From an uncultured delta proteobacterium (GTDB lineage: Bacteria > Desulfobacterota > Zymogenia > Zymogenales > Zymogenaceae), in assembly GCA_963735595.1 (NCBI GenBank), contig CAVTLK010000002.1:416001-480000 (forward strand): a DNA stretch of 64,000 nt. The letters run 5' to 3'. Positions 31,601 through 37,600 of this stretch are shown piece after piece. The position numbers were made by a program. Each line of letters begins with the position of its first letter. The first letter of the stretch is position 1.

Positions 31601-34600
31601 ACCACGCCCGCTCCGGGGCCCCTCGGAAGGGGTCGATGATCGAGCGGGAGGTGACGTACATCAGGACGAACAGGAGGATCAGCTCACCCCGGAAGGCGGC
31701 CGTCTTCCGGCGGATCAAGAGCGTTACGACGATGACGAGGTTTGCGACAAGGTAGTAGACCTGGGTCGGGTGGAGCGGGATATTGAGCGGCGCGGCCTTC
31801 GATTCGGTAAAGACGATCCGCCCAGGGCAGTTCGGTGGGGGCGCCCCAGCAGCAGCCGGCCATGAGACAGCCGACGCGTCCGACGGCCACGATCAGGGCC
31901 AGCGCCGGGGCGGCCGTGTCGAGCCACTGCCAGGGATCGAGCCTTCTTTTACGAAACAGGATCAGCGCCACGATCAGCGCCCCAAAGAGAGCCCCCTGGA
32001 ACGACCAGCCGGAGGCGATGGGGGAGGGATGCCGGATGAACTGTGCCCAGTTGGTCAGGATGAACAGGAGCTTTGCCCCGACCAGGGCCGACGGCAGCAT
32101 CCAGAGGATGATATCGACACCCGTCCACGCCGAAAGGCCGTCGCGACGGGCCAGGACGAGGAAGAGGACCACGCCGGCAAGGTAACCCGCCGTTATGAAA
32201 AAGCCGTACGACCAGACGATGTGGCCGTCGATGGTAAAGAGGATGGGATGCATAACTAATAGCTGCTACCTGATATCGTACGGGATGACACTGGCAGGCA
32301 AGAATCGCTATTGACTCGTGCAATTTCGAGGGTGGCACTGAGAAGCGAAGCTTGTCAGTGATCCGAACTATTCCCAACAGCGGGAACGAACCTTCCGGTT
32401 GTACGAGGCACGCGATGGTACGGAGGATCGGGTGCATTATGGCTTCTTGCCGGTTACCCGCGTTTTGCCCCCGGCGTGATTTGCACTGAGTGCCGACTTT
32501 ACGGCCTTTGCGATCGATTCTACGTCGATACGGTCCATGCAGTGGTTGGGTCCCATGGGGCAGGGCGTTCCGTAGATGCCGCTCCTTGTTTCCGTCAGGC
32601 ATCCGTCCGGGTTCTGGCAGATCCGGTGGCCGACGAGGGTTGTCTGGCCCGGCCAGCCGTAGGTGGCGGGGTCTGTCGCCCCCCAGAGGGTTACGGCGGG
32701 CGTGCCGACCAGCCGGGCGATGTGGACAAAGAGGTTATCGGTCGTGACGATCAGGTCGAACCGGGCCGCCAGCCCGATTGCCTCCCTGACGGTGGTGACG
32801 CCCAGGAGGCTGTAGGCCCCGCGGATATACCGGTCGCGCGCGGCGCCCGCCTGGGCGACGAAGATTCCCTCGGCGGAGAGGCGTTTGACCAGCTCTTCCC
32901 ACTGGGCGATGACATGTCTTTGCGGGGCGAGAGCGACCAGGGGCAGATCAGGACGTTTTTATCGGAAAGGGGGATGCTGTTGATGAGCAGCTCGTCGATC
33001 GACCGGCTCAAACGGCACGAAGAGGCGTTCGGCGGCCGGCATCGGGACGCCGAGCATCTCGGCAAGAATCTTGAAGGGGCGGCCGTTCGGTCCGCCGAAG
33101 TCCGGGGTGATCCCAGTAGGCGGTCCCGACGACGGCCGATCCGGGCGGCGGGTTGCCGATCCGTTCGACGGCGGGGTGGCCCTTGAGGATCTCGCCGTAG
33201 GTGGTTCGGGTGACCAGAGAGAAACGCCGCCGCGGGTCCTGATCGACGGCGGCCTTCAGGACGCCCGAAAGGATGATCGTGTCACCGTAGCCGCCGAAGG
33301 GGCTGATCCAGAGGGGACGGTTCTTGGGCGGCGCCCTGAACGGGACGACCGTCGCTGGCCGGCGGGACGGGAGGCTCGGGGACGCTTCGGTCCGTGCGGT
33401 CCGGGGACGCCGCCGGGCCGTCCGGCTCGAAGCGGACGCCGGTGATCGGCTCGAAGTACTTCTCGATGAACCCCTTCTTGTAGGCGCACAGGGGCGATTT
33501 TCTCATCCAGTCGCCGGTCTCGGCGTAGCTGTCCAGCGGGCAGCCGCCGTGGCAGACAGTCCAGAGGCGGCACCCCTTGCACTCACCCTGTTCGAGGTGC
33601 AGCTGGCGGGCGCGATACATCTCCTTTTGGGGGTCTTTGAGGACGCGTGTCTATCGAATTTTCGTGGATGTGGCCGTAGTCCAGCAGGCCCCAGTCCGAC
33701 GAGCGGCCGCACTGAGAATACCGGCCGGCGGGTCCCACGGACATGTGGGTATCGGCGCACATCCCCGACTCGGCGCATTCCAGGCCGCCCTTTCTCTCGA
33801 TGATCGCCTCCACAAACGACATGAAGGGACGAATCCTCGGGAAGCGATCCCGGCGCTCCCACCAGACCGGAAAAATCGCCCCGAGGAACTCCACGAATTC
33901 TTCCGGGGTTATCGCAAGCTTGGCGACCTTGCGCTTGAAGGAGTAGATCGAGTTGAACTTGACGGAGCCGGTTTTGTTGAGGTTGGTCAGAAAGTAGAAG
34001 AGGTCAAGGGGGGCGTCCAGAGAGAGCTTCGTGACGACGTAGATCATCCCCCAATTGATGTCGTTTTCCTCCAGAAGGCCCAGCGCGTCCATGAAACGCC
34101 GGTTATAGGCCGCCGAGTCGATAGTGCTGCCCAGACCCCGGACGTCGGGGATCGGGTCGTAGCTCGTGCTGACGCCGTTGATGCCGAGCGTCCGAAAGAC
34201 CTCGATATATTCCGGCGACAGCAGGGTAATGTTGGTCTGGATATCGTGGGAGATGCGGTCCTTTCGTGCCGGGGCAGTGCCGTTGTTCGAATTCATGGGC
34301 CTTCAGGAAATAGTCGGGCCCCAGCAGCAGCGGCTCGCCGCCGTGCCAGATGATCTGGAACCGCTCGTCCGGGCGATCGGCGAGGTATTCATTGACCCGA
34401 ACAAAGAACCGCTCCAGGGTCTCCAGCGGCAGCCGTGACGCCCTTTTCGCGGTCTTTCCTGACCACGTCGCAGTAGGCGCAGTTGCCGTTGCACGCCTCG
34501 GTCGGTTTAAATATGACGGTGGTCATGTCGCTCCTTTCTCGGTTCATCGCGCCGTTTGTCGAGGTCATCCAGGAGCGCGATCATCTCGACGGAGAAGGCC

Positions 34601-37600
34601 GCGCATCCCGTCCTGTCCGTCCCGTTTCGATCGAATTTCCCCAGGCAGACCTTCCATCCCGGGCAGCGCGAGCAGGGGTGATATGCGAGAAACAGGCGCC
34701 GGCGCACGTCGATCCGCTCCCGGTACGTCTCGGAATCGATAACTGTCGTCCAGCCGCTCGATATCGTTCTCGATGAAGCTTTCGTCGAGAAGTTCCCGGC
34801 GCGAGAGGGCGATGCGGCCGTCCGGGTCCAGGTGGAGGAAGTCCTTGGGGTCGTCGAAGAAGACCGGGCCCCACTCGATCCATCCGTCTGACTGGTAACG
34901 CCCCGCAATGGTCGAAAAGGGCTCGATCGGGCCGTGGGGTACGGCTGTCGACCAGGGAATAAGTCATGAGGTCGGCCAAGCCTTCCCAATCGACGGGTCC
35001 CGCGATCCCCGAAGACCGCCGCACATCGGATGTTGACCGACGAAAGAATCCTGAGGGCGGTGAGATTCCCGGGATCGTCGGCCGAAAGGTAAATCATGGG
35101 GTTCAGATCCCGAACCGTTCGCAGCCGCCGGGACGAGGCCGCGGAACTGCGCCATCTTCGGGGCAAAGACGGCAAGCTTGATGCCCGGCCCAGGCGTCGT
35201 CGAAGGGGACTTCGTCCAGGGGGATGCGAGAATCCAGGATGACCATCGAAAGCCGGTTGGCCGATGACCTCACGCACTCGGCGGCCCTGACGACGTCTGA
35301 CGGCTCATCGACCCGTACCGCCAGGACACGCTCGGATAAGTCGGCGATCAGCGTCTCGCTAAACGGCAATACAAGGTTTGGAAAGCCCACGTTCTATCTC
35401 CTGGAGCCGAACCGGCGCCTCGCCGACAAAGCGGTTCATGACCTGGCAGGCCCCGCCGCCCGCACACCGGCCCTCTTCCCGATGGATACAACCGTCACAC
35501 TCTTCGTAAATCCCGGCGGTCTCGGAGCGGACGCGGTCGAAGAGCCCCTGGTAGAAGTCGTGTACTTCCTTCATCGAGTTGAACTCGAAGAGGGAGCCGC
35601 TTGTGAAATCCCGAGAGCGGAAAGCATGCATAGACGTTCAGATCGGGGGTTAGGTCGATGGCCGGCCCGCAGCCGAATTTGAATTTCGCCGACTGGCGCA
35701 TAAGCCAGCCGAGCTGTTCGTCGGTAAACCCGCAGAGCGGGAAACCGCAGTCCAGACCCCGGCTTGATATCGAACCGATCCAGCGCCGGCCGAAATGAAT
35801 AGAGGCGGTCGATAACCGTCCGCACGTCGTCGGGTTTAATGATAGACGCTCTCAACTCCCGGCATCGGCGAGGCCAGGCCCAGCCGGATATGCCGGTGCA
35901 TGCCGTATCGCGCAATCAGGTCAAAGAGGAACCCGATGTCAAAATCGGTTCGATAGATGTTGAAGCCCGGCGTGCACCACGGCCCCATGAGGGAAAGGAA
36001 CTTCGCGATGCGCGTGCCCTCCTGCTTGGGGGCCGGGGTCTGATCGGGATTATTGAGGTTTACGACGAAGCTCAGCCGCGCGGGCGGCACCGCCGACAGG
36101 TGATCGGCCAGCTCCCTGAGACGCGCATCGGCCATAATGCCGCTGGTAAACACCGTTACGTGGAACTTGCGCTCGATAAGGAAGAGCACCATATCGACGA
36201 ACTCCGGGTGGAGGGTCGGCTCGCCGCCGAGCAGCGAAAGGCGATCCTGATCGGACGCGGCCAGAAAATCGGCAAGGTAGATCAGGTTTTCCCAGTTGAC
36301 AATGTCGCCCGAGGGGGACCCCTCCATCTCCCGCTTGGCAAAGCAGTAGGGGCAGGAACGGACGCAGCGGGATGTCATCAGGAGGTTGGTCACGATTGCT
36401 CCTCGAACGGTAATAATGAGGAGAGGCGGTTATCGCATCGTACGGCGGACGTGGGCCCGAGTCTAACGGTCAAATCGCTCCACCGGAAAGGAGGGGTGAT
36501 ATACAAACAGCACTTCTTTTTTAGTTGTGCCAAATTATATTGCCGTAATTTTCGGAGTAATCGTAATAGTTCTGGTAATCGGAGTAGTTGTAATAATCGG
36601 AGTAGTTGTAATAATCAGAATAATTATAGTAGTATGCTGAATATTCGGTGTACATGTTTGAATAGTTGTAGTACGAATAGTTGTAATAGGAGTTACTGTA
36701 GCCGTTCACATACCCGCCGGTACACTCGTCCTGCCCCTGGGTAACGACTCCGGCGACGCCAAGGGTGCCGACCAGGGCGATCCCCTTGGCCATGCGCTTC
36801 ATCGCCTCCCGCCGGGTAAGCGTTTCCTTGTTTGTGGTGTCGATCTCTTGAGTTTTCTTCTTTGTCTTCTTTTCGTCGTTCATCGTCTTCTCCTTGCAGA
36901 GCCGTCTTATCGTAAAGAGGAAGGCATGACAGGTCGAGGGTGGTGAATACTCAACGTGTCGCTCCGCCGGGACTTATATTACATGTAAGCTTCTTATCTT
37001 CCTGACTCCTGCAAGCCCGTCTTGCATACCGTTACTGTCATAGTTTATTACCAGTCATGATGTGAGTCAAGCAAATTGGTAAGTATCTTTAGTATAATAG
37101 TCGGAATTAAGGCCTGTCCCAGCAAAAAATATAAAGGGGCCCGTTCAGGCCCCTTTGGCTTGTCTATGTAACCCCGGTTACCAGGGGTGATAGTTGAAGT
37201 ACCCGCCGCCATGATTGTAATAATTGTAGTAGTCGCTGTAGTTGTAGTAGTCGCTGTACGTGTTGTAGTAATTATAGTACCCGTTGCTATAATTATAGTA
37301 CGCGTTCGAATAATCATAGTAGCCGGCATTGGAGTAGTTGTAGTAGCCCGGAGGGACCAGATTCACGTACCCGCCGGAGCATTCGTCCTGCCCCTGGGTA
37401 ACGACCCCGGCGACGCCGAGCGTGCCGACCAGGGCGATCCCCTTGGCCATGCGCTTCATCGCCTCGCGCCGGGAGAGTCTTTCGTCTTTCCTGACCTGGG
37501 CGGCCCCCGTTTCGTCTTTTTTCTTCTTCTTATCTTCCATTGTCTTCTCCATTGATTCGGTTACCTACGAAATGTAGAGACGGCAATGTGAGAACCAGGG

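Follow-up and report, generated by a model that had tools for sequence, protein, structure and literature searches.

The 64,000-nucleotide window analysed here, from an uncultured delta proteobacterium, carries on its minus strand a gene cassette that is real and widespread, belongs to no curated family and is unnamed. On balance, the evidence leans toward a conserved peptide-modification cassette in which a DynA-like radical-SAM/SPASM enzyme likely makes a string of three-residue cyclophanes on Tyr triplets. The initial annotation had proposed an undescribed RiPP-like system likely to cross-link aromatic residues; this is supported, and is sharpened by the Tyr-x-(Asn/Asp/Arg/Ser) register of the substrate and by the pseudo-enzyme character predicted for a partner protein. 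No description of the cassette was found in the literature searched; subscription papers, among them a 2022 JACS survey of triceptides (~3,900 putative pathways), and supplements may list the enzymes.

Precursor genes

Precursor 1 (37178..37540, minus strand; ATG at 37540) and precursor 2 (36521..36883, minus strand) each encode 120 amino acids, as previously annotated. Both start codons are preceded by a GGAG site; the ORF finder placed the precursor 1 start at 37552. Precursor 1 comprises: an RR-x-A-M-K-R leader; a hydrophobic stretch; the residues Q-D-E-C; and a 66-residue core with 15 Y-x-N/D units. Precursor 2 shares the leader and Cys and has 14 such units in a core of equal length. A candidate sigma-70-like promoter lies 5' of precursor 1 (37679..37708, minus strand; 11/12 consensus matches, from a scan by consensus matching alone that returned 6 sites where 2.7 were expected), and a terminator-like hairpin of 10 pairs lies 3' of it (37133..37156, minus strand). 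Rfam gave no match within 30000-38500 of the window, and a Pfam scan of four precursors gave none either, the peptidoglycan-binding domain included.

The source genome (G000) holds a third precursor, also noted earlier (147 aa; G000:C5:553544-553987). Its stop-to-stop frames of 40 aa or more, 48,785 in all, were screened for at least five Y-x-N/D units per 40 residues, and four passed: the three precursors and one unrelated frame. Precursor matches recur in nine of the ten genomes of the class, with five tandem copies in G001, reproducing the earlier count.

Register of the core

In the core, Tyr-x-(Asn/Asp/Arg/Ser) triplets follow one another in the triceptide register, and this unit replaces the YYNYS repeat first proposed. 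Across 57 de-duplicated precursors, the position two residues after Tyr is enriched over shuffled sequences in Asn (280 versus 133), Ser (399 versus 230), Asp (106 versus 54) and Arg (91 versus 63). Gly, which has no beta carbon, is avoided there (9 versus 69). Tyr-Gly, the motif of spliceases, occurs at chance level (68 versus 70). Tyr-Tyr spacing of 3 is enriched and spacing of 2 is depleted (195 versus 395); this depletion rules out the aromatic-x-aromatic register of darobactin for these 57 precursors. Along the enzyme tree, the third triplet residue changes between Ser and Asn/Asp in separate branches, with no change of register. Comparison of Ser-type with Asn/Asp-type enzymes gave no clean discriminating residue, only three weak columns. 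Links known from triceptides include Tyr-Asp, Tyr-Arg, aromatic-Asn and Phe-Ser (PMC11002830).

Enzyme genes and their distribution

Behind the precursors lie rSAM1 (35359..36393, minus strand; 343 aa in relatives), the partner (34507..35390, minus strand; 292 aa in relatives), a radical-SAM/SPASM-GT9 fusion (32437..34526, minus strand; ~690-700 aa in relatives) and an lgt paralogue (31494..32253, minus strand; ~255 aa in relatives). The lgt gene thus extends beyond position 31684, where the annotated span had begun. This order is unbroken in G001, G006, G007 and G009, as reported before, and in G004 SPASM/GT9 and lgt form a single 949-aa reading frame.

rSAM1 carries CxxxCxxC and seven invariant C-terminal Cys, and has no close characterised relative (best match 37 bits). 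The SPASM part of the fusion (~365 aa) has eight conserved SPASM Cys and is DynA/anSME-like: its top NCBIfam neighbours are DynA, anSME, DarE, DarW, AmcB, GrrM and YhhB, and in the PDB its sequence matches anSME and ChlB, a Tyr cyclophane synthase. DynA gives the best score, 141.2 bits against a cut-off of 450, and no NCBIfam maturase model reaches its cut-off for the cassette enzymes, both in accord with the initial annotation. The score of 141 of 450 is about equal to that for anSME, an observation that counts against a cyclophane reading. The GT9 domain (PF01075) was confirmed above the Pfam cut-off (28.7 versus 22 bits, E 1e-6). It is present in 26 of 34 loci; rSAM1 is retained in seven of the eight that do not have it, which points to a peptide substrate for rSAM1.

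An independent scan of metagenome contigs found rSAM1 in 51/53 and the SPASM enzyme in 53/54 sufficiently flanked loci. The partner profile retrieves 263 clusters at 50% identity (E < 1e-30), and rSAM1 has 1,264 relatives at 90% clustering. The earlier figure of 22 of 23 complete loci in genome_contigs was not reproduced; one scan with a single partner protein gave one locus.

Partner protein

The partner is a predicted pseudo-radical-SAM/SPASM enzyme that has lost the SAM-cluster motif. Its only invariant Cys are four, all C-terminal, which align with auxiliary-cluster Cys of SPASM domains; CxxxCxxC is missing. The predicted model (pLDDT 90.6) resembles ChlB (Z 14.0), anSME (13.6) and TigE (12.8), and superposes on ChlB with an rmsd of 3.8 over 272 residues as a partial TIM barrel with a SPASM extension. 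Consistent with this assignment, its nine top VIA matches are all radical-SAM proteins, Foldseek also returns ChlB (E 2e-4), and the sequence is colinear with the SPASM enzyme of its own cassette over 178 columns (E 0.0014). No likeness to the rSAM1 profile was seen (E 0.77).

The description of the partner as belonging to no family stands for sequence, with no match in Pfam, NCBIfam, PADLOC, PDB sequences or plasmids and with Atlas matches limited to unnamed clusters and one cluster in which 17% of members have SPASM, but not for the predicted fold. As the partner has no SAM motif, the supposed radical-SAM trio becomes two enzymes with that motif and a degenerate copy.

Leader, export and the lgt paralogue

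The leader follows RR-x-A-[LMI]-K-R-[IM]-A, of which K-R-[IM]-A is near-invariant, more than Tat export requires. Compared with the Tat consensus S/T-R-R-x-F-L-K, the RR and L-K-like positions are present and Phe is replaced by Ala in every Tyr-rich precursor among those listed; four loci have KR in place of RR. In Tat signals this Phe packs into TatC (PMC13323110). One of ~23 precursors scanned reaches the Tat-signal model. A hydrophobic stretch (mean hydropathy of 1.5 or more over 12 residues) is kept in 54/57 precursors. Depending on the lineage, it is followed by a lipobox-like Cys at a set distance or by A-x-A-like sites. Persistence of the stretch together with lineage-specific, cleavage-like ends makes sense only if signal peptidases act. 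Export toward the envelope is plausible from the sequences, which keeps the earlier proposal of a Tat-like leader in its RR and hydrophobic parts; given Ala where Tat has Phe, export is put forward conditionally. The tatC gene is found in 9/10 class genomes, G000 included, and neither tatC nor a TatA-like gene occurs in 96 cassette loci.

Lipobox-like Cys occur in 11/57 precursors, four of them strict, and all carriers belong to other lineages. The window precursors instead have Q-D-E-C after the signal, not the lipobox [LV][ASTVI][GAS]C (as defined in PMC8689077). The cassette lgt, the third copy in the genome, encodes a whole-length LGT domain (PF01790; 156 bits versus a cut-off of 24.9; positions 1-238 of 240). 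Where the H-G-G motif of the first copy has His, cassette Lgt proteins have Gln, Ala, Leu, Thr or Val, a position equated with E. coli His103 by motif and without direct alignment; the other motif residues are retained. E. coli Lgt loses its activity when His103 is changed to Gln (PMC8689077). The lspA-linked copy, from which the cassette copy derives, likewise lacks His, with Tyr at this position.

The paralogue adjoins the cassette in 8/10 class genomes. The G002 gene of this clade (support 0.997) instead follows Tat-signal, Cys-rich precursors with a different type of radical-SAM enzyme, a placement suggesting that the paralogue serves exported RiPP precursors. The paralogue is confined to this class, and among metagenome loci with enough flank one of 31 has lgt. 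The gene is present as annotated, but it is a lineage-specific addition outside the core system. Since a single lineage has both the Cys type and lgt, their match counts as one event. The cassette protein possibly sits on a lipid anchor in this lineage.

Comparison with known systems

The closest known systems are triceptides by chemistry and HXS by architecture. Triceptides, made by 3-CyFEs (YxdB, YhhB, ChlB, OscB/GrrM, MscB/FxsB, XncB/XyeB), share the aromatic-x-acceptor triplet, whose third residue is Asn, Asp, Arg or Ser. The cassette maturase belongs to the same anSME-like SPASM branch, and ChlB is both its PDB sequence match and the top fold match of the partner. The cassette enzyme falls below every 3-CyFE cut-off, at 39-84 bits versus 310-450 (AmcB 84/425, GrrM 82/310, YhhB 76/445, FxsB 58/370, XyeB 39/450). 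Unlike triceptide precursors, those of the cassette carry 14 to more than 20 motifs and a signal-peptide-type leader, and the cassette adds an extra radical-SAM enzyme, the pseudo-enzyme, GT9 and Lgt. Among the 95 of 217 neighbouring ORFs that were scanned, no recurring or dedicated protease or transporter was seen. DynA and DarE (98/650 bits for the latter model) form Trp-Asn and His-Tyr links on the same residue types, but on a single heptamer or decamer rather than a long, repetitive core.

HXS is an anti-phage system (HxsA/B/C/D) that acts in the envelope and whose enzymes install a +8 Da change (PMC13128918; bioRxiv 10.64898/2026.01.06.697848). It likewise pairs a signal-bearing aromatic-x-Ser repeat protein with two radical-SAM enzymes and an accessory protein. 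In contrast to HXS, the cassette repeats use Tyr rather than His; its enzymes are not HxsB or HxsC orthologues (57/370 and 20/268 bits); the cores of the window precursors are not basic but neutral to acidic; its hosts are mostly uncultured anaerobe lineages, not Gammaproteobacteria; and most cassettes lack a defence-island context. No HxsD match was found, and the HxsA4 model scored 22/55 bits at best. PADLOC returned generic viperin matches alone for the cassette enzymes. For 25 proteins partly picked as defence-like, on which no claim of enrichment is made, it gave strong matches beside two orphan G001 precursors and one generic kinase beside a cassette.

Two comparisons concern the accessory genes. 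According to PMC12093266, thuricin CD TrnC and TrnD are two radical-SAM proteins in complex, one of which need not be catalytic; there, both retain radical-SAM activity and make thioethers, whereas the partner has lost the SAM-cluster motif. The paralogue resembles the Lgt of Tat lipoproteins in its complete domain and in the Cys behind a hydrophobic stretch, and differs in its variable catalytic His position and in a substrate Cys after Q-D-E or Q-G-E.

Alternative explanations

The same cassette and substrate could support another chemistry, HXS-like or new (inter-chain Tyr-Tyr links, epimerisation or carbon addition). HXS shares the repeat effector, paired radical-SAM enzymes and accessory protein, and its +8 Da change is not a simple -2 Da link, so repeats and paired enzymes need not mean cyclophanes. 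rSAM1 has no characterised close relative, and two Ser-type precursors match HxsA4 weakly (E 2e-4 and 0.004), probably by composition. Against this, the acceptor position holds known triceptide acceptors and shuns Gly, the SPASM enzyme is closer to DynA, DarE and 3-CyFEs than to HxsB (141 versus 57 bits), and the splicease motif stays at chance, leaving other chemistry a minority possibility. A role of the SPASM enzyme as anaerobic sulfatase maturase, with the Tyr-rich genes as unrelated neighbours, is hardly credible. The anSME model does score 130.5 bits, the eight SPASM Cys are as in anSME, and sulfatase genes follow the cassette in two loci (L102 and L103). The cut-off of 349 is not attained, however, and where anSME has its catalytic base, the Asp that follows the third auxiliary Cys, a nearly invariant Gly stands here. 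Of 28 loci with good flanks, at least 19 also pair the cassette with precursors, and DarE gives the same misleading likeness to anSME (PMC10288494).

The leader may instead be a former Tat signal kept solely for enzyme recognition, with a product that stays cytoplasmic or takes another route and with Lgt as an inactive membrane chaperone. The invariant Ala, the near-invariant K-R-[IM]-A, the KR variants, the cassette loci without tatC, the lost His103 position and the signal of HxsA, which is not canonical in behaviour, would all fit. Such a course is nevertheless unlikely, given the conserved hydrophobic stretch with its lineage-specific ends, the retained Lgt motif residues and the non-His residue of the lspA-linked copy. 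Still less probable is that the cassette, although real in relatives, is undergoing pseudogene decay in G000. None of its four enzyme genes is whole there: rSAM1 has three frameshifts, the partner five and lgt two, and SPASM/GT9 is in several pieces. Relative to G005, which itself has one break within the SPASM gene, the four genes carry 21 frameshifts in 4.7 kb versus 8 in 6.4 kb for five flanking genes, and a ~184-nt insertion (32254..32437, minus strand), flanked by two copies of the first lgt codons, splits SPASM/GT9 from lgt. Yet nonsense codons are absent, pN/pS against G004 is alike for G000 and G005 (0.09, 0.38, 0.25 versus 0.22, 0.28 versus 0.27), and a neighbouring fatty-acid oxidation gene carries four such breaks. 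The breaks are mostly single extra bases and the enzymes of relatives are largely intact. The frameshifts look like assembly errors, as the initial annotation had supposed.

Proposed mechanism and implications

If the cyclophane reading is correct, the DynA-like enzyme would join each Tyr ring to the beta carbon two residues on. The RR-x-A-[LMI]-K-R-[IM]-A helix may have two roles, as the site that the maturase recognises and as a Tat signal of non-standard type, and the pseudo-enzyme, a degenerate copy of the SPASM enzyme in this view, may bind precursor or enzyme as a scaffold. rSAM1 could add a second change, and GT9 could glycosylate hydroxyls of Ser or Tyr, perhaps with heptose. Glycosylation, proposed earlier, is likely on the linkage of GT9 (26/34 loci), which is the evidence for it, and is not universal. 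Tat carries folded cargo. The rigid, modified protein would pass via Tat and, instead of being trimmed to a small antibiotic, remain in the envelope. In this class the non-standard Cys that follows the signal would fall to the spare Lgt, likely so that a lipid anchor can be added.

The fullest form of this proposal, held with little confidence, is a stapled glyco-lipoprotein of the envelope: ribosomally made, poly-cyclophane, Tat-exported, anchored by its own Lgt, assisted by a dead copy of its maturase, and perhaps a Tyr-based equivalent of the barrier that HXS sets against the entry of phage DNA. If true, cyclophane chemistry would reach beyond short antibiotics and include envelope proteins bearing at least 15 rings. 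The cassette would also offer a testable case of a pseudo-radical-SAM accessory, tie GT9 to peptide maturation, and provide a RiPP that comes with a lipidation enzyme of its own. Peptide engineering would gain from processive Tyr stapling in which the acceptor can be switched among Ser, Asn, Asp and Arg, and, given the parallel to HXS, a role in phage defence can be tested directly in E. coli.

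Precursors and core grammar

Two precursor genes of 120 aa each lie on the minus strand of the window, at 37178-37540 and 36521-36883, and a third copy is found on contig C5 of the same genome (G000). The initial annotation had placed all three correctly and had rightly given them a twin-Arg leader and a Tyr-rich core. Both window precursors share a leader containing the twin Arg, A-M-K-R-M-A, a hydrophobic stretch and Q-D-E-C, followed by cores of 66 residues with ~37% Tyr. Among 48,785 reading frames of G000, four are this rich in Y-x-N/D, and three of these are the precursor genes. 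The C5 copy is flanked by metabolic genes, unlike the two orphan Tyr precursors of the related genome G001 (L205:4888-7922 and L206:5819-9297; G001:C7), both of which have defence-like neighbours: strongly scoring PD-Lambda-5 A/B as well as AriB-like and AAA ATPase pieces.

A filter that required a twin-Arg motif together with a Tyr content of 7% or more gathered 63 precursors, 57 of which were left after near-duplicate removal; each core was compared with 500 shuffles. Two residues after Tyr, Asn (280 observed vs 133 shuffled), Ser (399 vs 230), Asp (106 vs 54) and Arg (91 vs 63) are enriched and Gly is depleted (9 vs 69), while Tyr-Tyr spacing of 3 is over-represented (560 vs 390) and spacing of 2 under-represented (195 vs 395); these counts are descriptive, as repeats and kin among the precursors are not independent. 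This triplet register is found instead of the YYNYS repeat originally described, and a darobactin-type reading, Y-N-Y-S-D, is likewise not supported. The register holds separately in the class, with N, D or R (Tyr at -2 of 80% of these residues), and in the 33 other cores, with Ser (397 vs 166). In a midpoint-rooted tree of 42 SPASM enzymes with eight open forks, Asn/Asp-type cores fall on separate branches amid Ser-type ones. Two articles describe an aromatic-X2-X3 motif as defining triceptides, the three-residue cyclophane RiPPs (PMC11499958), and list Asn, Ser, Asp and Arg as known acceptors (PMC11002830). Judged by sequence, the precursor triplet repeat is this motif.

Gene order and integrity of the cassette

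Downstream of the window precursors are four genes, every one in pieces in G000. The intact order reported for four genomes of the same class (G001, G006, G007 and G009) is borne out: whole genes there encode rSAM1 (343 aa), a partner protein (292 aa), a SPASM enzyme fused to GT9 (692-700 aa) and an Lgt paralogue (~255 aa). The G005 cassette has one break, and in G004 SPASM/GT9 and Lgt share one reading frame (949 aa; L022:5150-7999), which is either a real fusion or an assembly indel. Protein analyses of the cassette enzymes were based on intact relatives rather than on G000.

Recent decay of the cassette is a less likely source of the breaks in G000. They are denser there, 21 falling within 4.7 kb of cassette as against 8 within the 6.4 kb of five flanking genes, although some of the counted breaks may belong to the comparison genome, G005. 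Assembly error, as first supposed, fits the data: most breaks consist of one extra base, four of the same sort occur in a neighbouring housekeeping gene, and comparison with G005 and G004 reveals zero nonsense codons and a pN/pS equal to that of G005.

The cassette is flanked by a fatty-acid oxidation pair on one side and lysine-fermentation genes on the other. The latter (kdd, kamB, lysine 5,6-aminomutase and kal; 37952-45226) are divergent from the cassette, and the same neighbourhood occurs in G001, G003 and G005. A pilin-like gene (30632-31212), split in G000 and with similar genes in G001, G005, G006 and G008, is convergent on lgt. Positions 31260-31480 belong to a dispersed repeat family, of which all five contigs carry partial copies, dozens in total. 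At 32254-32437, an insertion of ~184 nt without counterpart in G005 has a copy of the first lgt codons on either side and only short matches elsewhere in G000.

Modification enzymes

The SPASM enzyme contains CxxxCxxC and eight conserved auxiliary Cys. Its best-scoring models are DynA (141 bits, cut-off 450), anSME (131, cut-off 349) and DarE (98, cut-off 650), then the radical-SAM/SPASM enzymes of triceptides (3-CyFEs); none of these reaches its cut-off. Matches in the PDB are anSME and ChlB. Gly occupies the place of the Asp that follows the third auxiliary Cys in anSME and serves there as catalytic base. DarE provides a precedent for an anSME-like sequence with cyclophane chemistry, as outlined in PMC10288494.

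The GT9 domain scores above the Pfam cut-off. Given a gmhA-like gene just below cut-off and four other GT9 genes in G000, a heptose donor is plausibly available there. At one locus, a PfkB/cytidylyltransferase fusion (HldE-like, sugar-nucleotide synthesis; L070:10947-12644) is convergent on the GT9 gene.

In rSAM1 the SAM motif is accompanied by seven C-terminal Cys, all invariant; the enzyme is kept in seven of eight loci without GT9 and has no near characterised relative. The partner, initially said to be of no family, indeed has zero family matches, but its predicted fold is radical-SAM/SPASM-like. The model (pLDDT 90.6, pTM 0.88) matches ChlB (Z 14.0, rmsd 3.8, 272 aligned; Foldseek E 2e-4), anSME (Z 13.6), TigE (12.8) and a CteB-type enzyme (12.6). 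The partner is without CxxxCxxC. An alignment to the cassette SPASM enzyme, with a pairwise probability of only 18% (E 0.0014), places the four invariant Cys of the partner at C315, C318, C324 and near C346; they do not align with rSAM1. The partner is read as a degenerate duplicate of the SPASM enzyme that would have kept one auxiliary cluster. Cooperating radical-SAM pairs have a precedent in TrnC/TrnD, according to PMC12093266. Distant partner homologues at three loci (L159, L160, L161) adjoin other DynA-like SPASM genes, one lying within an 805-aa protein that bears a methyltransferase-like region. These pairings suggest that pseudo-enzyme pairing extends to further systems.

Leader, probable export and the Lgt paralogue

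The precursors had been assigned a twin-arginine-like leader, which stands as regards the twin Arg and the hydrophobic stretch (54 of 57 precursors) but departs from the Tat consensus at the Phe position. The twin Arg is followed by x-A-[LMI]-K-R-[IM]-A, with Arg at +6 in 57/57 and Ala at +8 in 54/57, neither position being imposed by the filter. Under a looser filter too, the Tat Phe position of Tyr-rich precursors holds Ala and in no case Phe, and KR replaces the twin Arg in four loci whose neighbours include type IX secretion domains. The Tat Phe is present in four of six other candidate Tat proteins of G000, and it packs into TatC in the account of PMC13323110. Eleven of the 57 precursors have a lipobox-like Cys 23-27 residues past the first Arg (four strict), and many of the remainder end the signal in A-x-A-like sites. 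tatC is present in 9/10 class genomes. A dual-use leader, recognised by both maturase and Tat, fits best, and export of the precursors is probable.

Class genomes hold up to three lgt copies: His-type, lspA-linked Tyr-type and the cassette copy, whose clade derives from the lspA-linked one (FastTree support 0.997) and adjoins the cassette in 8/10 genomes; in G003 the contig ends within the cassette. Mapped by motif to residues taken from PMC8689077, most members of the cassette clade keep those corresponding to Arg143, Tyr235, Arg239 and Arg246, but the place of His103 is taken by Q, A, L, T or V.

In G002 (94% complete, 290 contigs), three queries found no Tyr cassette. Here, the cassette-type lgt clade lies downstream of Cys-rich precursors whose signal is a true RR-x-F-L-K and which have G-A-S-C at +28; they match TIGR04117 below its cut-off (E 2e-6). 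On a different contig, which presumably joins this one, precursors of the same type lie downstream of a PapB-like rSAM. No lgt adjoins a G002 precursor whose lipobox is standard. One Lgt clade thus accompanies two unrelated Tat-leader radical-SAM precursor types, each of which places a non-standard Cys at +28 to +30. It is a single comparison, yet the best evidence for action of the paralogue on such precursors.

Five or more Cys-rich precursors bearing canonical Tat signals make up the G002 array (L182:561-2099, G002:C277; L202:1-3730, G002:C57), together with the same lgt clade and a PapB/SCIFF-like radical-SAM enzyme of 497 aa that reaches no cut-off. The array is a candidate for a separate Tat-exported ranthipeptide system; related single precursors occur at L204:318-611 and L203:2000-2440.

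Distribution

At 50% identity, 439 clusters match the partner profile, 263 of them with E below 1e-30. So do 16 of the 401 genomes examined from the phylum, 13 strongly and 3 distantly. The profile also matched 89 metagenome stretches, and 80 of these were retained. Among metagenome loci, rSAM1 is found in 51 of the 53 whose upstream flank measures 1.1 kb or more, the SPASM enzyme in 53/54, GT9, fused or separate, in 26/34 and lgt in 1/31. The filter detects a Tyr-rich twin-Arg precursor in 19/28; six of the other nine have shorter or variant precursors and in three none was seen. Named homologues are generically named MAG proteins from Deltaproteobacteria, Syntrophaceae, Syntrophobacteraceae, Polyangia and Terracidiphilus.

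Several loci vary in composition. Between precursor and rSAM1, six (L059:5683-6873, L068, L072, L076, L078 and L153:7647-8834) encode an extra ~400-aa protein that contains a D-D-D motif. It has zero matches in Pfam or NCBIfam and one Atlas cluster with GT2 in 13% of members; it is possibly a second glycosyltransferase. Downstream of the SPASM gene, L124, L126, L127 and L128 encode small proteins that bear a type IX secretion sorting domain, and L124, L126 and L128 also KR-leader Y-x-N precursors; these four loci have no GT9 wherever the flank is long enough. In genome G371, a partner directly fused to GT9 (L158:9131-10717), without SPASM enzyme, adjoins a lasso-peptide-like gene set. Some loci have a tandem pair of SPASM paralogues, and others a pair of GT9 genes along with short Y-x-S precursors rich in Cys (L087, L091, L099, L101, L155; L083-L085).

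Relation to known systems

The cassette resembles triceptide pathways in core grammar and enzyme branch. Its layout is like that of the HxsA/B/C/D anti-phage system (HXS), in which a repeat protein that bears a signal is matured by a pair of radical-SAM enzymes and an accessory (bioRxiv 10.64898/2026.01.06.697848; PMC13128918). By curated score it is a member of neither. Tailored triceptides exist, minviopeptin (PMC12912966) being an example. The accessible portion of a survey of repeat precursors (PMC9062424) mentions no Tyr-triplet precursor, and a literature search covering the main text of freely readable articles found no description of the cassette. Tyr cyclophanes combined with envelope export are the mechanism we favour, by a modest degree; lipid anchoring and phage defence would be bolder, less likely extensions of it. 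The cassette itself is very probably a real, widespread and apparently unpublished peptide-modification system.
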